Assembly: GCA_965217865.1 (NCBI GenBank)
Contig: CBDCJO010000002.1
Location: 5,088,001-5,152,000 of the forward strand
Length of the DNA stretch: 64,000 nucleotides
Direction: 5' to 3'
Source of the DNA: Candidatus Latescibacterota bacterium
GTDB lineage: Bacteria; Latescibacterota; UBA2968; SICM01
This document shows positions 44,280 to 57,934 of the stretch, one piece after another. Below the pieces are notes generated by a model that saw nothing but the letters and a program-made list of their open reading frames with translations, made no database searches and had not been told where the DNA came from. Position 1 is the stretch's first letter. Every line of letters begins with the position of its first letter. The position numbers were made by a program, and so were the translations under genes.

Positions 44280-45296
44280 TTACCTCCTTATCTGGACCGC
44301 TGGCGTCTGGAACGGCCACAGCTCGGATTCAGGGAAGCCGACATAAACATCGGTCAGGGTTTCCGCCGGGTCGGGCTGGGGGCTCTCTTGGGCAAAACGG
44401 CAAGCCTCTTCTATGGCGTCCTTCGTCTCGAGGTCGATGGCATCCAGCTCGCTCTGGCTCAGTAGGCCCTGCTGCAGCACGGTTTTGCGGAAGAGATGGA
44501 TACAGTCCCTGGAGAGAAGGAATTCCTCTTCTTTTTCGGGCCGGTAGAGATCGGTATCGCCTTCGAAGTGACCATATTTGCGGTACGTCTGGGCCTCGAT
44601 GAAAGCCGGGCCTTCGCCACCCCGCGCGCGATCCACAGCCGCCCGCGTAGCTTCGTACACGGCGAACACATCCTGACCATCAAGGGCCATACCGGGCATG
44701 CCAAAACCACCCGCCCGCGCAGCGATATCGTTGCCTGATACAGAGTAAGCGGCGGCGGTCGTCTGGGCATACCGGTTGTTCTCGCAAACGAAGATGACGG
44801 GTAACTTCCAGACGCCGGCCAGGTTCATCGCCTCCAGGGTAGTACCCTGGTTGGAGGCACCGTCGCCGAAGAAGCAAACTGTCACCTGGTCTGTGCTTTT
44901 CACCTTGGCCGTAAGACCGGAACCACAGGCCAGAGGCGGCCCGCCACCGACGATACCGTTGGCGCCGAGCATCCCTTTCGACATATCGGCGATGTGCATT
45001 GAGCCGCCCTTACCTTTGCAGGCGCCGGTGGCCTTACCACAGATCTCAGCCACCATCAACTTGACATCTACGCCTTTGGCAATGCAATGGCCGTGGCCCC
45101 GGTGGGTGCTGGTGATGAAGTCATCATCCGTGAGATTAGCGCACACCCCCACTGCGACAGCTTCTTCACCGGCGTACAGGTGGACGAATCCGGGAATCTT
45201 TCCTGCAGCGAAATCCACATGAATGCGTTCCTCGAACTCCCGGATTAAACGCATGCGCTCGTACATCCAGAGTAGCTTGTCTTTCCCGATTTCCAT
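44280..45296 (-). CDS. acoA: TPP-dependent acetoin dehydrogenase E1 alpha subunit (own RBS and ATG inside the long ORF)
   Basis: PGFVHLYAGEEA, STHRGHGH, GKGGSMH, GDGASNQG TPP motif, ENN, GHFEGD; AGGGAGG RBS before ATG 45296. Confidence 0.92.
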   Translation of the reverse strand: MEIGKDKLLWMYERMRLIREFEERIHVDFAAGKIPGFVHLYAGEEAVAVGVCANLTDDDFITSTHRGHGHCIAKGVDVKLMVAEICGKATGACKGKGGSMHIADMSKGMLGANGIVGGGPPLACGSGLTAKVKSTDQVTVCFFGDGASNQGTTLEAMNLAGVWKLPVIFVCENNRYAQTTAAAYSVSGNDIAARAGGFGMPGMALDGQDVFAVYEATRAAVDRARGGEGPAFIEAQTYRKYGHFEGDTDLYRPEKEEEFLLSRDCIHLFRKTVLQQGLLSQSELDAIDLETKDAIEEACRFAQESPQPDPAETLTDVYVGFPESELWPFQTPAVQIRR

Positions 45297-48200
45297 TCGC
45301 AATCCCTCCCTGTGTCTATTTAACTTGACAAAAGTCGAGAAATCATTTAGGATTGTTTCGTTGAGTGCCTTTCTCCTTGCCCGTATTTCTTGACCCCTTT
45401 TCCACCTGGTGAGATCCCGGATGGCGGTGACCCTGACGGTCCGTCCCCGGTAGGGGACAGCCCTTCCTGTAACCTCGATGGGAAAAGTAGATCCGTCCTT
45501 TCTCAGGCCGACGACCTCATAGGGCCTTTTAGATCCGGATTGAATATTCTTGTAGATTGTTTCGTGGAATTCCGCGGGCGTAAGGTCCGCGGCCGTCTTC
45601 CCGATCATCTCCGAAGGCTCGTAACCAAACATCGATGCCAGCGATTGATTTGCATCCAGGATTTTACCCTCTTCGTGGAGGACGATACCCTCGAAGGCGG
45701 CCTCGGAGAGCCCTCGAAACCGCGCCTCGCTCTCTCGCATTGCCCGGCCCCTCCGGACGGCACGGGAACCCTGCCACACGATCAGCATCCCGGCGAGACA
45801 AAGCGCCAGGACCCCGAAGATCCGGTCATACGGCAGACGCACCTGGAGCGTTACAGTCGCGGGCTGTTCCGAGGGGACCAGGTCCCGGTCCACGGCCATG
45901 ACCTCGAACGTGTAGCTCCCTCTCGGAAGGTCCTGGTACTCCACCCTCCGGGTGTTTGTCGAGATCCAGCCCTCATCGTAGCCTTTCAGACGATATCGGA
46001 AGACCATCGCTTCCGCCCGTGTCTTGAAGCTCATTCCCGAAAATTCAAATGCGACAAGGTCCACAGTCGACGGGATCTCGATACCGGACACGGCCTCATA
46101 TCGTTTATCTGCAACCACGGCTTCGATGGAAACCCCCGGAGGAAACTTCGGGGGTTCACGATAGCGCGTGACACCCCTGACGGTTCCGATCCAGAGATCG
46201 CCCTCCCGGTCCTGGGTGATCGACGTGACCTGATTGCCGGCCAAACCATCCCGGTGGTCAATCGTCTGAAAGTTGACCCCATCGTATCGCGTTACGCCGC
46301 CGCCATAAGTGCCGAACAATAGATGGCCCCGTCGGTCCTGATAGATTGCCCGCACCACATTTTCGCCCAGGCCATCATCTTTTGTGATGGTCGTAAATCC
46401 TTTGCCGTCGAATCGACTCACGCCCCCACCCTCCGTGCCGAACCAGAGGATCCCCGCGCGATCTTCGAACATCGAAAAGACCACGTTGTGCGCCAATCCG
46501 TCTTCTGTGGTAAATGTCGTGAATCCCGGAGATTCCGGGCTTGGAGAGGGATCGAACCGGCTCACCCCGTCTCCCTGGGTGGCAAACCAGAGATATCCCT
46601 TCCGGTCCTGAAGAATGGACCACACTTTATAAGCAAGCCCATCCTGAATGTCGTATGTGGTCCACACCGGTCCGGATTTTCCTGAAGGATCGTATCGGCT
46701 CACCCCACCGCCAAAGGTCCCGAACCAGTATACGCCATCCCGATCCTGAAAAATGGACCATACCTCATCGTGGGCCAGGCCGTCTCCGGTTGAAAATGTC
46801 GTCCATGTCCGGCCATCATAGCGGGACACCCCTCCGCCCTTGGTCCCAAACCAGATGTGGCCCTCTCTATCCTGAAATACGGTGCGTACCTGAAGATTTC
46901 CGAGGCCGTCTTCCGGCGTGTAAGTCGCAAAGGTTCCATCACGATGATACCGGGTCGCCCCACCGTATGTGCCGAACCAGAGATCCCCGTGCCCATCTTC
47001 CAGGACCGAGAGCACCACATCGTGTCCGATCCCTTCCTCTGAGGTGAAAGAAATGAGGCTCTGGTCATAGCGGCTCACACCTCCGCCGGTACCGAACCAG
47101 AGATCCCCTTCTCGATCCTGAAATATCGACCCCACCCAGTTGCCCGCCAACCCGTCATCAGTGGTGATGGTTGTAAATCGTTTGAGACGGGGGTCAGCAG
47201 GCTTCTGTCCAGAGCTTATGGAGGGATCATACTTGCTCACACCTCCGCCCTGGCTTCCAAACCAGATATAGCCATCCCTATCCTGAAATATCGTGGATAC
47301 GCTATTGCTTCCAAGACCTTCTCGAGTTGTGAAGGTGATAAAGCGGTAGAAATTGTCGCTGCCGGTGGTTGAAGCCCCAACCTTCATCCTGTTCATGGGC
47401 TTTGATCCCAGGCCATACCGGGTTATCCCGCCATCTACGGTCCCAATCCAGAAATATCCTTCCCGATCCTGAAATACCGCCTGAACCAGATTGGCACCAA
47501 GGCCATCCTGGGTGGTGAATGTTGTCCAGGCTCTTTCAGCTCTTGCCAATGGATCATAAAGGCTCATCCCTGTCCCGGTAGCGAACCAGAAATGGCCCGC
47601 TCGATCCTGAACCATCGAAGTAACCTCCTCCCCGGCAAGACCATCCTGTGTACTAAACGTGATCCAGGCCTGTCCATCGAAACGGCTCACACCAGAGGTT
47701 GTCCCCACCCATAAAAGTCCGGATTGATCCAGGAACCAGGTCAAGGCGAGAATACCCTCCGGTTCGTCTTTAAAGTTGAAGACACTGGTGCGAAAAGTAT
47801 TTCCGCCTATTTTGAAGTCCATTGCGGGATGGGGTTCTGAAACTCCAACCCTTTTGTCCGATGGGGAGGGATCGAACCGGTTGAAACCGATTTCACTGCC
47901 CAACCATAGATTTCCCCCCGCATCTTGAAGAATCGTGCGGACTCTATTGGACAGCAGGCCGTTTTTCGTGGTGTAATTTGTCCAACGGAGCCCATCATAC
48001 CTGCTCAGACCATTTGACGTGCCAAACCAGATGTGTCCCTCTCGATCCTGTACAATCCCGTTCACGTTCACATTTACAAGCCCATCTGTCACATCGTAGG
48101 TGCGCCATTGACCTCTTCCGTGTTCAGCTGATATGGATTTTCCCGGACCAGAAGACACGATTTTCCCAGGCCCCGCAGGAGCGGTATATATACGGAATTC

Positions 48201-48608
48201 GTGTTGTATAAGGCCGGTTGGGAACGCAATTCCAAAGGCCGCACCCAGGCCGCGAAGGGCGGTGACCCATTCCGAATCGTTCTGTAAGGCTCTGTTTTTC
48301 TCCGCGATCTCGGATGGCGCGCTCACCTCAAACAGGCGGCTGAAGATGCCGTCGGGCCCGGGTCTCGGACGTTGAGTGGATTCCTTCAAGCCGTGTTTCG
48401 ACAAGATAGGCACGAGCTTCTCCGCATAGGAGGTCTCGAACTCTGCAATTCGATCGGGAGGGACCCAGAAAGAGAGGCGTGAAAGGGTGGGGGAGGGAGG
48501 GGAGGTGCGCGAAGCGGAGATACGATCGGAGGACCAGCCGTCGGAGAAGAAGAGGGAAATGCAAAATAAAAAGTGAAAAGTGAAAATTGTAAATTTGAGA
48601 AAAGTCAA
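44280..48608 (-). CDS. Membrane sensor (two-component regulator propeller repeats, YYY domain, TM helix, PAS) in frame with AcoA
   Basis: Many DREGxxWFGT..GGVSRYD repeats, YRLKGYD..W...EY.DLP.G.Y.FEV.A (YYY), TM helix, PAS (SEARFR...RKDGSTFPIEV); no stop before acoA. Confidence 0.75.
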   Translation of the reverse strand: MTFLKFTIFTFHFLFCISLFFSDGWSSDRISASRTSPPSPTLSRLSFWVPPDRIAEFETSYAEKLVPILSKHGLKESTQRPRPGPDGIFSRLFEVSAPSEIAEKNRALQNDSEWVTALRGLGAAFGIAFPTGLIQHEFRIYTAPAGPGKIVSSGPGKSISAEHGRGQWRTYDVTDGLVNVNVNGIVQDREGHIWFGTSNGLSRYDGLRWTNYTTKNGLLSNRVRTILQDAGGNLWLGSEIGFNRFDPSPSDKRVGVSEPHPAMDFKIGGNTFRTSVFNFKDEPEGILALTWFLDQSGLLWVGTTSGVSRFDGQAWITFSTQDGLAGEEVTSMVQDRAGHFWFATGTGMSLYDPLARAERAWTTFTTQDGLGANLVQAVFQDREGYFWIGTVDGGITRYGLGSKPMNRMKVGASTTGSDNFYRFITFTTREGLGSNSVSTIFQDRDGYIWFGSQGGGVSKYDPSISSGQKPADPRLKRFTTITTDDGLAGNWVGSIFQDREGDLWFGTGGGVSRYDQSLISFTSEEGIGHDVVLSVLEDGHGDLWFGTYGGATRYHRDGTFATYTPEDGLGNLQVRTVFQDREGHIWFGTKGGGVSRYDGRTWTTFSTGDGLAHDEVWSIFQDRDGVYWFGTFGGGVSRYDPSGKSGPVWTTYDIQDGLAYKVWSILQDRKGYLWFATQGDGVSRFDPSPSPESPGFTTFTTEDGLAHNVVFSMFEDRAGILWFGTEGGGVSRFDGKGFTTITKDDGLGENVVRAIYQDRRGHLLFGTYGGGVTRYDGVNFQTIDHRDGLAGNQVTSITQDREGDLWIGTVRGVTRYREPPKFPPGVSIEAVVADKRYEAVSGIEIPSTVDLVAFEFSGMSFKTRAEAMVFRYRLKGYDEGWISTNTRRVEYQDLPRGSYTFEVMAVDRDLVPSEQPATVTLQVRLPYDRIFGVLALCLAGMLIVWQGSRAVRRGRAMRESEARFRGLSEAAFEGIVLHEEGKILDANQSLASMFGYEPSEMIGKTAADLTPAEFHETIYKNIQSGSKRPYEVVGLRKDGSTFPIEVTGRAVPYRGRTVRVTAIRDLTRWKRGQEIRARRKALNETILNDFSTFVKLNRHREGLRMEIGKDKLLWMYERMRLIREFEERIHVDFAAGKIPGFVHLYAGEEAVAVGVCANLTDDDFITSTHRGHGHCIAKGVDVKLMVAEICGKATGACKGKGGSMHIADMSKGMLGANGIVGGGPPLACGSGLTAKVKSTDQVTVCFFGDGASNQGTTLEAMNLAGVWKLPVIFVCENNRYAQTTAAAYSVSGNDIAARAGGFGMPGMALDGQDVFAVYEATRAAVDRARGGEGPAFIEAQTYRKYGHFEGDTDLYRPEKEEEFLLSRDCIHLFRKTVLQQGLLSQSELDAIDLETKDAIEEACRFAQESPQPDPAETLTDVYVGFPESELWPFQTPAVQIRR

Positions 48609-48657: not shown

Positions 48658-49915
48658 TCACATCTCCCGTTTCCTGACCATTTCGTGGCCTTCAAATAGG
48701 TCGTAGGCGATCGCTCCCTGGCTCTGCGCAGGAGGGGATGTGCCCAGAATGTGACAGAAGGTGGGTACGACGTCGGCTGCGTGGATGTATCCGAGTATAT
48801 TCACCGGCCGCTCGTAGATTCAAATAGTCGTAAAGATGCCAGTGACATATGAAGAAAGCGCATCCCTTCTCGTTGAGCATATAGTTCGCGACGTCAGCGA
48901 ACCAGAGGCCCTGGTACTCGCACTCCTCCAGGGCCGTGTTGAAGTCGGCCATGCGGGATGTGTAAGGGATCATGGAGGCGTGCTCCTGGTAAGGGCCGAA
49001 CCGTTCGATCAGCTCTTCGGCAAGGTCTTCCGGAACTGTAAATCCGTCCGCATAGGTGACCTGTGTGCGATAGAGTTTCATCTTTTCGCCGTCGGGAGAC
49101 AATTCAAGGAGCTTAAACCGAACCGAGGCGCGCTGGTCCTGTCCGTCGATCCGGAAGGACTCGATGGCCCAGTCGCTCCACTGACCCAATCCCGCATCCG
49201 CGATCCGGGTGGCACCATCCCTGCTGCGGCAGATGACGATCCTGTCGTAGCCCCCTCCATCACTGTCGAGCGCGAGGAGGTGAAGGCGGTTGACATCGCC
49301 TCCGAGGCGGGCGTGGATTTCGATATGCGTATCGAGAGGGGGGGCGTGACTCGAAGGCAGATTGGACCACCCTTCGGCGAGTCGTAGGGGGGGGATCTGA
49401 TCGATGCTGCGCCGCTCCGTGCGGACGGCCGTGCCGTCGTGCTCCATTTCGACGGCCACCTCCTCGCCCGAGGTGGTGTAGGCCTGACACATGGCCACCT
49501 CATAGTCGGTTTTGGAATGGCTTGGGTGACCGAAGCCGTCCACGACATAGCCCGATTGGACCCCTGAGGGATGGGCGGCCGGATAGTGGACCGCAACGCC
49601 TTTGAGCCCGGCCCGCTCCACGGCGTTCCAGATGCGCTCTGCATTCGGGGCGTGACCGTCGAAACTGTCGATCCGGTTTCCCGGGGAGGTCTCCACGTGC
49701 CACCGGGTGACGCCGTGGGTGCCGGTGTGGGCTCCGGTCGAGAGGGTCGCCCAGTTCGTGGGGGTCCAGACGGGAAAGGAGGGGAGGGTTTGATTCACGG
49801 TTCCCTCCTTCAACATCCGTTCGAAATTGGGCAGACAGCCTTCGGCAGCGAACTTTTTCACCATCGGGGTGATGAGGCCGTCCATTCCAAAGGCGTAGAT
49901 GTTTTTTTGAGACAT
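48658..49915 (-). pseudogene. Alkaline phosphatase/phosphodiesterase superfamily gene with an internal deletion
   Basis: FGMDG, WTPTNWATLSTGA..GTHG; after HLYDYLN (about 48817) another frame gives the family C-terminus DVVPTFCHILG..PAQSQG..YDLFEG, stop at 48660-48658. Confidence 0.78.
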
Positions 49916-49977
49916 TAGAGCTCCTTGAAAGCAGAGGATCGTCGTGAAATAAATTGAAGATTGAAGATTGAATATTT

Positions 49978-51067
49978 AGGATCTTCCTGGTTCTTGATGG
50001 AAAACGAGGTTTTGTGAGGCGACATATCAGCGGGCCAACGGTCCGCGATCCGGATTAACCCACACATATTGTTCATCGTAGGACTAGATGAATCAGGATG
50101 CGGTCAGGGATTGGGGGATGTGAAATTATCGCGGCCCTTCAGGCCGCACAACGATATGGCTTTCCAAGGACCCAGGGCGCTGCCCTGGGTTGAGGGATAA
50201 CGCGCCGTTGGCGCTGAAAGAAGATCCTGACTTTAATCTCGGCTTTTCGATATGGAGATCTTCCTTGTTTTTTGTGCAACCGAAGTTCTGTAAGGCGACG
50301 CATCAGCGGGCCAACGGCCCGTGATTCCTTGGCCCAGCCCAACGGGCTGGGTTTGAATGTGAGCGAATCCAGCGGGCCAACGGTCCGCGATCCGGATTAA
50401 CCCACACATATTGTTCATCGTAGGGCTAGATGAATCAGGTTGGGGGATGTGAAATTATCGCGGCCCTTCAGGCCGCACGACGATATTGCTTTCCAAGGGA
50501 CCCAGGGCGGCTCGCCTGGGTTGAGGGATAACGCGCCGTTGGCGCTGAAAGAAGATCCTGACTTTAATCTCGGCTTTTCGATATGGAGATCTTCCTGGTT
50601 TTTTGTGCAACCGAAGTTCTGTAAGGCGACGCATCAGCGGGCCAACGGCCCGTGATTCCTTTGCCCAGTCCAACGGGCTGAGATTGAATGTGAGCGAATC
50701 CAGCGGGCCAACGGTCCGCGATCCGGATTAACCCACACATATTGTTCATCGTAGGGCTAGATGAATCAGGTTGGGGGATGTGAAATTATCGCGGCCCTTC
50801 AGGCCGCACGACGATATGGCTTTCCAAGGACCCAGGGCGCTGCCCTGGGTTGAGGGATAACGCGCCGTTGGCGCTGAAAGAAGATCCTGACTTTAATCTC
50901 GGCTTTTCGATATGGAGATCTTCCTTGTTTTTGTGCAACCGAAGTTCTGTAAGGCGACGCATCAGCGGGCCAACGGCCCGTGATTCCTTGGCCCAGCCCA
51001 ACGGGCTGGGTTTGAATGTGAGCGAATCCAGCGGGCCAACGGTCCGCGATCCGGATTAACCCACACA
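49978..51067. repeat. Tandem array of about 330-bp REP-rich units (3 full plus partial ends) with a TnpA(Y1)/RAYT remnant
   Basis: Anchor CAGCGGGCCAACGGTCCGCGATCCGGATTAACCCACACA at 50028, 50370, 50701, 51029; five short palindromes per unit. Confidence 0.92.
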
Positions 51068-51225
51068 CAGAAGCCCCTGAATTTTGTCTCGCCTTCTCGA
51101 TTTAGCTCGAAGGCCCGGTGTCAATCGCGAAGACAGGGTCCACTATATTCCACGGAAAGCCATATTTAAGATTGGAAGCGCATGAGAGGCAGGTAAACGC
51201 AAATCGGAAAGCGAAAACCGGAATA

Positions 51226-52466
51226 TCAAGATGAACTGTCTCGCTTGGTTGCTTGACGCTCGTAAACCAGTCTGCCTGACTTAAAGACCGATACTGGCTC
51301 CCTTAAGGCGTTTAGATCTTCAAGGGGATTTTCCTTCAATAAGGTGAGATCCGCACGATACCCCGGTTTGACCTCTCCCAGCTCAGACAGGCTCATGTAC
51401 TCTGCTCCAAGGCTGGTCAAGGTTCTCAAGGCCTCCTCGTTGGAAAGGCCGGCCCTGGTGTAAGCAAGGATCTCGTCCACGAGGGAGTCGAAGGGTGTGT
51501 CGGTCGCCCCGCAATCTGTTCCTCCTATGATCTTCATCCCGAGCCTATAGAAGTGTCCGGTGTTCGTAAGACGCCCCTCCAGCCGATCGACTGCCGCCAA
51601 ATCATTCGGATTGTGAGACGCGCCTGATTTGCGATACCGCGCAGCGGTTTGAAGCCCGCTGTAAGCGGTGGGGCTGACGACGATTCCGCGATCCCGAATG
51701 CGCAGGCTGATATCTTCGTCATAACGATACCGGCCGGGAGGCTCCACAAAATTGACGTGCTCGATCATGTCCAGGCCGGCTTCGATCGCTCGCTCGATGC
51801 TCTCCGTTGCGTGACAGTGGGCGGTGATCTGCACGCTGTTCGCGTGGGCGACCTCTGTGGCCGTTTTCATCAGTTCCAGGGGGAGGTCCGCTTCGTAGGG
51901 GATTGTTCCGGGTGTCAGCCCACCCCCCGAAGCCATCAGCTTCACGAACCCGGCGCCCTGTTCCAGGTGCCCTTCGCTCAGACGGCGGACCTCTTCTACT
52001 GTGCTGACCTCACCGCCCATAAAGTGAAGGTGACCCTTGGGACGCATGAGGGCGTGGCCGCAGCTGATGATGTGGGGGGCGGCCCCAGGACTTCCCCCCG
52101 TTCCACCTGGCGTTGAAAGGGAAACATCAGGCGAGCGGGTGCGGCGCAGTCCCGCATCGTGGTGATCCCGGCCTGGATCGCGATGCGGGCGTTATTCTTC
52201 GCGCATTCCATTTTCGCCCCGTCGTCGCTCTCGATGTAGCTGGTCCTGGGCGCGCCGCTTGCGTCCAGAAAGAAATGCGCGTGGCAGTCGATCAGGCCCG
52301 GGCAGATGTAGAGTCCCGCGGCGTCGATCGTTTGGCCGGAGCGTCCCGGTTGGGATTCTGTTACCGAGTCGATTCGGTCGCCCTTTAAAACCACGTCGCG
52401 GTTCTGGTGGATAAGGCCACGGGCAACGTCTACCACGTTGGCGTTGTGGATATGGAGAGGGTTCAT
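51226..52466 (-). pseudogene. Amidohydrolase family gene with a frameshift near 52075
   Basis: PGLIDCHAH, AGITTMRD in one frame; KLMASGG, AHCH, IEH, GTDCG, ADL in another; junction in a C6 run. Confidence 0.82.
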
Positions 52467-52526
52467 AAGGGAAAATGAAAAGTGCAAAGTACAAAGTGAA
52501 AAGTGTAAAATGAAATCAAGGTAGTA

Positions 52527-56408: not shown

Positions 56409-57934
56409 CAGCCCGTTGAAGAACTACCTTTCAACGCACATAAACGGAAAAGACGCCTGGAGTGCGGGTCAGATAAATCAAGGTAAGGAGATTGAGCAGG
56501 AGACGCTGATAAGAGGTTAAAAAGGTAACCGAGGGCAGCAAACGTGATTGTAGGACGAGCAGTAGACGCTGCAAGGCCTTGGCCAGGTCCTGGAGGGCCT
56601 TCGGAGTACCTACGCCCATCACTTTGCGCATGAGCAGAGCCAGGTTGCAGCCCCCGATGTGGATCAGCAAACGCTTGAGGATATTGCCGCGGTCTCTCAA
56701 GTGCAACCTGCGCATGCCACCGGTATCATATGTGTGAGCGATGGTTCTTTCCACCCGTTCTGCACGACTTCGGCGCAAGGCCTTGCCGCGATCTCCCTTG
56801 ATCCGGCGTCGATTCGCATATACCGCGGCCTGCTCATCTCGTCGGCCGTTCCACTTGCGGCGTCCCCGATCCGGTTCTGAAATGTAACTCCGGATGCCGC
56901 CTTGCTTCAGACTGGTCAATACATCGTTGCTATGATATCCTTTGTCCGCAACCACCTCCCGTATACGCTGTCTGTGCAAACGTTTGGCAGCTTTTTCGTC
57001 CTTCGCGACCTGCTTGAGATTGAGCGGCGCCTCGAGCAGCGTCCAGGGCAACGACTCGGTATCTCCTTCATCTGCTCCCGACAACGCCACTGCCACAATG
57101 GCATTGGTGTCCAGATCCACCGCGTGCTCCACCTTGTGCGCCATGTGCGTGCGACCGTCCTTCATCTTAGCGATCTTGGCATCCGGGTCGTGCGGGTGCT
57201 CCCAGTCCTGGTTCGATCCCTTCTTCGGTCGCTTCTTATCGATCTTGGACAAGTCCTCGCGGGTAGGCGTTTCAATGCCCGAGGCCTTGGCCAGATTCTC
57301 AAGGAATGCCTGGTAGCCTTCACCCGTGTCACGGCGTACAATGCTGCGCATCGCGGCGTTGGCCTCCAGTGTCGTAGCATCCACGCCCAACGTCTTCCCC
57401 TTCACCAGACCCGCTTTGCACAAGACCCTCAGGATCCACTTGAAAACCGCTTCGTGAACTTCCAAGGGAAGCCGATGCCGGATGCGAGACAGGCTGGAAT
57501 GATCCGGGGTCTGTTCGTCAAGGGCATACCCCAAAAACCGGCGCAACGTCAGCGAGTCAGATACACGCCATTCGATCCCACGTTCCGAATCAAGTCCCTC
57601 GAAATACCCAATCAAAAGCATCCGAAAATAAACCCCGGGCGGAATGCCCTTGCGACCCATATGAGGAGCGTAATACCGCTGGCAAAGCCCCTCGACGAAC
57701 TCGTCGAAGCCGTTCGCCCCCAATACCTGATTCAGCTTCTCGTAGAACGGATGACCCGGAGATTTCACCAAAGTGTTCGATGCGATGAACAGGTTTTCCT
57801 GTCTCTGTCGGCCTCGTTTTCCCATTGCCATTTGCTCGTCCTCCCTTCTCAGTTTGAACCTGATATATCATAGGACCAAACCACAAGGAAAGACAACAGT
57901 CATCTTGGCATAAACGCACTTTTTCAACAGGCTG
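56409..57934 (-). mobile_element. IS5/IS1182-like insertion sequence, copy 2
   Basis: Same IRs as copy 1; about 6 substitutions seen; flanks ATAG / CTAG. Confidence 0.95.
56431..57831 (-). CDS. DDE transposase (copy 2)
   Basis: 466 aa; differs from copy 1 at three residues (F/S, Q/P, V/A). Confidence 0.93.
   Translation of the reverse strand: MAMGKRGRQRQENLFIASNTLVKSPGHPFYEKLNQVLGANGFDEFVEGLCQRYYAPHMGRKGIPPGVYFRMLLIGYFEGLDSERGIEWRVSDSLTLRRFLGYALDEQTPDHSSLSRIRHRLPLEVHEAVFKWILRVLCKAGLVKGKTLGVDATTLEANAAMRSIVRRDTGEGYQAFLENLAKASGIETPTREDLSKIDKKRPKKGSNQDWEHPHDPDAKIAKMKDGRTHMAHKVEHAVDLDTNAIVAVALSGADEGDTESLPWTLLEAPLNLKQVAKDEKAAKRLHRQRIREVVADKGYHSNDVLTSLKQGGIRSYISEPDRGRRKWNGRRDEQAAVYANRRRIKGDRGKALRRSRAERVERTIAHTYDTGGMRRLHLRDRGNILKRLLIHIGGCNLALLMRKVMGVGTPKALQDLAKALQRLLLVLQSRLLPSVTFLTSYQRLLLNLLTLIYLTRTPGVFSVYVR

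Follow-up and report, generated by a model that had tools for sequence, protein, structure and literature searches.

How did a bacterial genome come to hold a head-to-tail array of hairpin-rich units that keep both ends of a transposase gene, and which enzyme carried such units around the genome? The array lies in a 64,000-nucleotide stretch from a Latescibacterota bacterium (the window; G000:C2:5088001-5152000), the genome of which is 96% complete with 9.3% contamination. [quoted passage not shown] The analysis described here points to a different origin: the array probably consists of four copies of a non-autonomous composite element, which an ISL3-type transposase would have spread to about 50 sites and later recombination would have built into an array.

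Tandem Repeats Finder reports a sole array in the window, at positions 50028 to 51067, with a period of 331, 3.1 copies, and 94% matches. In-register units start at 50028, 50370, 50701, and 51029, which reproduces exactly the periods of 342, 331, and 328 bp reported before. However, the element as a whole spans positions 49979 to 51161, beyond its previously reported end. It takes in a complete left end and a fourth copy that has lost more than the others, so that a single pair of ends, one left and one right, encloses four copies (Table 1). Each copy has two inverted three-hairpin arms around remnants (stumps) of tnpA, and a 7-nt direct repeat, ATATTTA, is found on both sides of the whole array. 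The units differ from each other by 3 to 7%, with specific indels, and the further short deletion common to units 2 and 3, also noticed previously, is 13 nt long. Unit 1 contains 8 perfect stems of at least 5 bp, whereas base shuffles contain 1.0 on average and 1 of 2,000 reaches 8; one unit folded as DNA gives a z score of -3.2. All hairpins named in the earlier note are present, although two of them are imperfect in unit 2 and the right-hand hairpins of unit 1 are down to one. The boundaries of the array are crossed by contigs from sequencing runs of three studies, the one at the outer right end by short-read contigs in runs X1, X2, and X7. The deletion join in copy A is crossed by a contig with 30 letters on one side, one below the bridging threshold.

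Table 1. Features of the array locus (positions in the window; the shell comprises the sequences outside the arms)
Feature	Position	Strand	Remarks
Target duplication, right copy	49972-49978	.	ATATTTA, 7 of the expected 8 bp; family-wide duplication is 8 bp
Shell, outer right end	49979-50029	-	ISL3-type inverted repeat of 22 bp (49979-50000), plus an inner part of 30 nt
Copy D, right arm	50030-50046	-	Down to one hairpin
Copy D, tnpA stumps	50055-50119	-	Codons 1-13 fused to codons 142-150 with a frameshift; decay of both start and stop
Copy D, left arm	50131-50214	-	Three hairpins
RF01687 (Acido-Lenti-1) match in copy D left arm	50171-50215	+	30.3 bits, below the 37-bit cut-off
Junction 1, head-to-tail	50244-50277	-	Copy C right inverted repeat and, after 4-5 nt, a left end without its first 62 nt
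Copy C, right arm	50307-50388	-	Three hairpins, inverted relative to the left arm
Copy C, tnpA stumps	50397-50448	-	Further 13-nt deletion
Copy C, left arm	50460-50545	-
Junction 2, head-to-tail	50575-50608	-	Within a 180-nt stretch (50481-50660) identical to G000:C2:4865414-4866260
Copy B, right arm	50638-50719	-
Copy B, tnpA stumps	50728-50779	-	13-nt deletion
Copy B, left arm	50791-50874	-	RF01687 match at 50831-50875, 30.3 bits
Junction 3, head-to-tail	50904-50937	-
Copy A, right arm and last tnpA codons	50966-51067	-	Arm 50966-51047, codons 51056-51067; left arm and 5' stump deleted
Shell, outer left end	51069-51161	-	About 93 nt; 22-bp ISL3-type inverted repeat at 51140-51161
Target duplication, left copy	51162-51168	.	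ATATTTA

Both ends of a tnpA gene are indeed present between the arms, as claimed before. However, the segments IPQSLT, RILIHLV, and YDEQYVW, encoded on the minus strand of positions 50030 to 50140, occupy frames 1, 3, and 1 and not a single frame, no start ATG is left, and the TAA, now out of frame, is what remains of the stop. The longest stump in the family (P0001, 50 aa) matches 115 proteins, mostly of 150 aa and up to 90% identical, the C-termini of which read YDERYVWD or close to it. The best 80 of 124 matches yielded 79 genomic loci of relatives, 66 of them with full-length genes; the HUH and WQ motifs are found in all 66, Y---Q--HH in 61, and Y---NP in none. The DH[IV]H, WQ, and Y---Q--HH motifs and the length of about 150 aa, with a C-terminal tail of 30 aa, are those of TnpA-Y1 subclass 1.2 (Quentin et al. 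2018, PMC6006769). P0004 and P0009 match only the IS200 model NF033573 and not the RAYT model NF047646, and the GT[AG]G sequence at the hairpin foot is absent, by reading, from every arm hairpin of the family consensus. By motif, then, the parent of the stumps is assigned to the IS200-like TnpA-Y1 subclass 1.2 and not to the RAYTs, and the RAYT parentage has to be given up. The other half of that proposal, a non-autonomous element that kept the hairpins along with both ends of a Y1 tnpA, holds, with full-length relatives sharing these termini and arms. An identity with TIRYT/TIRtron elements (PMC3733652) was considered and rejected; Quentin et al. place 26 such examples in subclasses 2.1, 2.2, and 2.5. 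Bertels' IS200 Group 3, which has abundant flanking 16-mers and no duplication, is possibly the same protein group as the relatives of the stumps.

A full-length TnpA(Y1) gene with the same hairpins, for which the earlier note had advised a search, exists in other genomes but was not found in the host genome either by tblastn or with a six-frame profile of the 66 relatives. The 19 matches to Pfam PF01797 in this genome come from an unrelated IS200 family and fragments: there are 13 near-identical copies of the unrelated IS200 tnpA (L001 to L013), another gene (L014), and fragments. Near-intact relatives are present in close databases (P0002, P0117, and P0118). P0118 is matched at 1e-20 by 9 of 167 other genomes of the phylum, with 54% at best, and thus the direct parent is not among these 167. 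In a genome from another family of the same class (G041), one copy is collapsed and has a right end like those seen here; a search of that genome with the present query turned up no intact gene. One region of the same genome (L199, G041:C1:2460000-2472000) holds five arm-bearing copies within 7 kb, one of which keeps MPQSLSRTLIHLVF and the right end, and a locus in a further genome (L200, G066:C46) carries a subclass 1.2 gene with an internal stop and decayed arms on both sides.

The closest intact relatives elsewhere carry the same three hairpins per side, inverted. This is a REPIN-type layout, with two inverted palindromic modules that are separated by a short spacer and able to pair. Two of the three hairpins in each arm match Rfam family RF01687 (Acido-Lenti-1), reading outward from tnpA; the best score in the host genome, among 150 of 1,018 candidates, is 31.9 bits, with a cut-off of 37 bits. 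The arms of the relatives (79 loci, from the best 80 of 124 matches) give 44 hits above the cut-off, in 26 of the 79 loci. Within 100 nt of the gene lie 31 of these 44 hits, and 30 of the 31 face outward, in genomes that are related and not independent, so that p values for this association come out too strong. Acido-Lenti-1 is listed as a small RNA (Weinberg 2010, PMC2864571) and has been described as being "of unknown function" (10.64898/2026.10.21.760802), whereas here it appears to behave as a DNA end module, with the copies in the window scoring below the curated cut-off. The comparison of sequences supports the view that the Acido-Lenti-1 "RNA" may be a DNA end module of the subclass 1.2 Y1 transposases; in the open-access literature, we found no paper that links it with transposases and nothing on subclass 1.2 beyond the Quentin paper. 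That paper lists no REP for the subclass. In contrast to this description, the subclass has REP-like flanks here, in the form of three-hairpin inverted arms, and about 50 gene-less derivatives.

With one unit as the blastn query, 53 clusters were found in the host genome, and a profile made from 47 clusters picked out 50 loci with 79 hits in all; the reversed genome gave no hit. Over 57 pieces, the median identity of the copies to the consensus is about 90%. Dispersed monomers show at most 95% identity to their nearest neighbors, which indicates that dispersal is old, and the family looks old and inactive. Taken over all copies, the stumps cover codons 1 to 52, about 109 to 129 (with the catalytic YIRNQEKHH, kept by one genomic copy), and 131 to 150, and none of the genomic copies retains an HUH motif. 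The spacer between the inner hairpins is 2 to 192 nt long, with a median of 64, in the 44 copies that have both inner hairpins, and 230 nt long in one further copy that holds an unrelated insert. A single genome thus contains a graded series from 52-codon stumps down to arms fused 2 nt apart. The 26 computed joins include a few secondary deletions, one unrelated insert, and one internal fragment, and the commonest join is found in 13 of the 44 copies. Four joins are mutually non-nested and one more copy keeps an internal fragment, so the deletion occurred several times. All joins could still stem from a single ancestor that already lacked codons 53 to 108, and therefore the founder need not have been full length. 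Changes in 20 copies affect 13 of 679 stem sites, compared with 87 of 1,385 sites in the left end and 56 of 695 in the stump, and the excess conservation of stems also holds for G/C sites alone. Host selection, selection formerly exerted by TnpA, or repair of palindromes through template switching could each account for it; the composite-element model does not explain it. Two copies in this genome (C2:3050599-3051050 and C2:4838930-4839485) carry insertions of 160 to 220 nt of unrelated palindromic DNA.

Outside the arms, the copies have about 95 nt in common at the left and 52 nt at the right, and this similarity stops abruptly at AT-rich flanks; the left end is kept at 27 and the right end at 29 of the 50 loci. 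The two ends form an imperfect 22-bp inverted repeat, with 14 of 22 positions pairing. An 8-bp duplication with at least 7 of 8 positions matching flanks 8 of the 17 loci with both ends, versus 2 of 272 mismatched control pairs (permutation p about 1e-5; flanks 81% AT), and the signal peaks at 8 among lengths from 4 to 11. The count of 17 leaves out, because of the end filter, the locus at C2:4865k, which is itself 8/8 duplicated. The 9 loci below 7/8 include the array, which has 4/8 in strict register and 7/7 after a one-base shift. The sense strand of tnpA is the G-rich strand at only 13 to 16 of the 50 loci (p 0.001 to 0.015), which places 34 to 37 against the fork. This bias is weaker after the merging of clustered loci (10 versus 4), in an assembly with patchy skew and a resident IS200 control that is not significant. 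By crude ORF calls, the flanking genes are both in the same orientation at 19 loci, both opposite at 13, and mixed at 18, so that gene orientation, with no clear rule, fails to explain the fork bias. Insertion by Y1 transposases is not known to make a target duplication. An IS200/IS605-type element would be without inverted repeats and duplication and would lie with the fork; the present element differs on each count. ISL3 elements, in contrast, are reported to lie against the fork and IS200 with it (PMC3971601), ISL3 elements generate AT-rich repeats of 8 bp and form circles in which the spacer measures 5 bp (PMC3469429, PMC5559704), and target duplications and inverted repeats are marks of classical DDE elements (PMC5027513). 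The 8-bp duplications, the 22-bp inverted ends, and the against-fork orientation make dispersal by a DDE transposase more probable than by an HUH one, and an ISL3-type enzyme, not HUH rolling-circle action, is the likely agent.

The host genome has a resident ISL3 element of 1,328 bp, in four copies that are 99.8 to 100% identical, with a match to NF033550 at 294.6 bits and exact 8-bp repeats at three of the four copies. The shell ends show the same pattern as its ends, with only 11 to 13 of the 22 positions in common, and the right ends agree fully over their last 8 nt; other ISL3 elements of the phylum also have ends of this pattern. No autonomous ISL3 with the exact shell ends was found in the resident ISL3, plasmids, or viral contigs, and when 5 candidates per genome were scored in the phylum's 167 other genomes, the search for a parent ISL3 returned two chance-level hits only. 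No empty shell was found either, and no empty insertion sites were seen in two read and contig comparisons, one of which was swamped by other repeats. Shell ends are present within 600 nt of none of the 66 full-length subclass 1.2 loci (from the best 80 of 124 matches), which indicates that the shell is foreign to the Y1 element. Two ISL3 copies (L207 and L208, G000:C2:4033933-4039246) lie inverted, 2.7 kb apart, and a 407-aa DNA-methyltransferase/HNH-like ORF is located just beyond one of them. Ends that resemble the right repeat and have no arms are seen at C2:5183193-5183753, C2:2298731, and C2:3283158 of the same genome, two of them facing each other at a distance of about 560 bp; they possibly represent a second ISL3-type miniature family.

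The head-to-tail junction of the array recurs elsewhere in the genome, with seven occurrences at three loci. It sits at the tip of the DDE-type right end, not at a hairpin, and lacks the left inverted repeat. The three junctions of the array are 97.8 to 100% identical to the one at C2:4865924 and 86 to 95% identical to those on C1, whereas the outer ends of the array and of the C2:4865k locus are only 84% and 79% alike and their target repeats differ. Two older insertions thus appear to have recently gained the same inner unit. The junction alleles are 73 to 77% like the array's own outer right end. Unit 2 is 97.0% identical to a copy on the other strand 272 kb away, versus 96.7% to its neighbor, and has 180 identical nt in common with that distant locus (69 with the next best locus). 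The head-to-tail arrangement stands, but simple local amplification does not, and the proposed order of events is incomplete, given that unit 2 is as close to a distant copy as to its neighbor. The simplest reading is that a circle bearing the junction recombined into resident copies and that local duplication followed.

These observations suggest a scheme in four steps. First, a subclass 1.2 tnpA with two inverted three-hairpin arms would have come to lie between ISL3-family ends of the lengths given above. Second, an ISL3-type DDE transposase would have moved the whole unit in trans, duplicating 8 bp of AT-rich target; the marks of this step are seen in the copies, and the enzyme is presumed. 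Third, tnpA was repeatedly deleted between the arms, often at microhomologies of 1 to 4 nt; the products are at hand, and slippage of replication at the paired arms is their probable source. Forms already shortened would have gone on transposing, as the recurrence of one join in 13 of 44 copies indicates. Fourth, the tip of the right inverted repeat would have been the site where a single right-end/left-end junction formed; the unit bearing this junction, probably a circle, would have recombined into residents at three loci and been duplicated here. The more specific proposal that a whole hairpin-flanked Y1 element was captured by ISL3 ends and spread by a foreign DDE enzyme, leaving the graded series, has in our estimate an even chance of being correct.

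It is unlikely that ISL3 dispersed only the monomers while Y1 cleavage and strand transfer, by an intact tnpA of the element's own or by the resident IS200 in trans, produced the junction and the collapse. Many joins are without clear microhomology, and the copies show a BIME-like shuffling of module alleles; both would suit such a mixture, as would the near-intact relatives in close databases and the 13 resident IS200 copies. However, several joins fall at 2- to 4-nt repeats typical of slippage, inspection of the joins reveals no dinucleotide common to them, and the resident IS200 TnpA is only about 26 to 28% identical to the cognate family. Quite unlikely, in turn, is a REPIN- or BIME-like element with a Y1 (HUH) transposase of its own that dispersed and amplified it, whether by way of single-strand circles or by rolling-circle copying. 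BIMEs can be cleaved and joined by TnpA-REP, and tandem amplification models exist (PMC3333891); the fixed distance and orientation of the arms beside intact subclass 1.2 genes and the conserved stems would fit as well. Yet the mobile unit extends beyond the hairpin element and has the inverted ends and 8-bp duplications of DDE transposition (PMC5027513), its orientation is opposite to that of IS200, and the junction is at the tip of a DDE-type end. Moreover, the youngest events (97 to 100% identity) are those of the array, in a genome with no cognate tnpA found. It is highly improbable that misassembly created the array or that a single copy expanded purely locally by unequal crossover: although no read or sequencing-run contig spans the whole array and the flanking genes contain frameshifts, its units have diverged with indels of their own, junction 2 is spanned with zero differences by a contig of run X7, from another study, and its junction alleles are common to two other loci and unlike its own outer right end.

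The composite reading brings together features of several known systems. ISL3-family insertion sequences and passenger-carrying ISL3-like transposons (IS1411, the fosB element; PMC3469429, PMC5559704) share with the array element the pattern of inverted ends, the 8-bp AT-rich duplication, the against-fork bias, and a right/left-end junction with a spacer of 4 to 5 nt. In contrast to them, the array element has no ISL3 transposase, its passenger is a decaying Y1 element, its junction is without the left inverted repeat, and its parent was not found. With REPINs and BIMEs and their RAYTs (PMC3337134, PMC3333891, 10.1101/2021.07.10.451892), it has in common two inverted palindromic arms with a short spacer, dispersed copies, mosaic alleles, and tandem arrays. 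Unlike in REPINs, the transposase is of class 1 and was not found in the genome, there is no GTAG foot, the spacer is still readable as tnpA, and the marks of dispersal are DDE-type. Judged by sequence, the element seems to behave as an ISL3-type MITE, the passenger of which resembles a REPIN in the making. MITEs with passengers, REPINs, and tandem arrays are each already known; the presence of Y1 arms and stumps inside an ISL3 shell is new, and we found no paper in the open-access literature on ISL3 shells around REP-like elements.

Bertels and Rainey have proposed that REPINs arose by fusion of the palindromes that flank an IS200-like element. The copies described here may be a fossil series of the origin of a bacterial hairpin repeat, with sequence-level intermediates for this proposed but undocumented step, in which transposon-end palindromes fuse into REPIN-like doublets. 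If the capture reading is correct, that step has been caught with the gene remnant still readable, populations of REP-like hairpins can be seeded without a transposase of their own, and the hairpins remain under constraint after its loss. On the reading favored here, an unrelated DDE transposase can disperse such repeats, and so their presence need not mean Y1 activity. The arms would also provide natural substrates for an enzyme class that has been described as being without such repeats.

Several neighboring genes in the window are of interest in themselves. Upstream of the element, an amidohydrolase gene (51226-52487, minus strand) is split into two ORFs; the contig from run X7 lacks 5 nt at position 52076, in this region, so that the break may be strain-specific. 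Downstream of the array, a phosphonoacetate-hydrolase-like ORF (48692-49915, minus strand) gives a weak hit to TIGR02335 and has an odd tail, probably because of a frameshift near 48850-48910. An ORF of 1,442 aa (44280-48608, minus strand) apparently combines, by reading, a beta-propeller/PAS sensor with a pyruvate-dehydrogenase E1-alpha-like domain in a putative fusion, and a 466-aa ORF at 56431-57831 on the minus strand reads as a DDE-type transposase.
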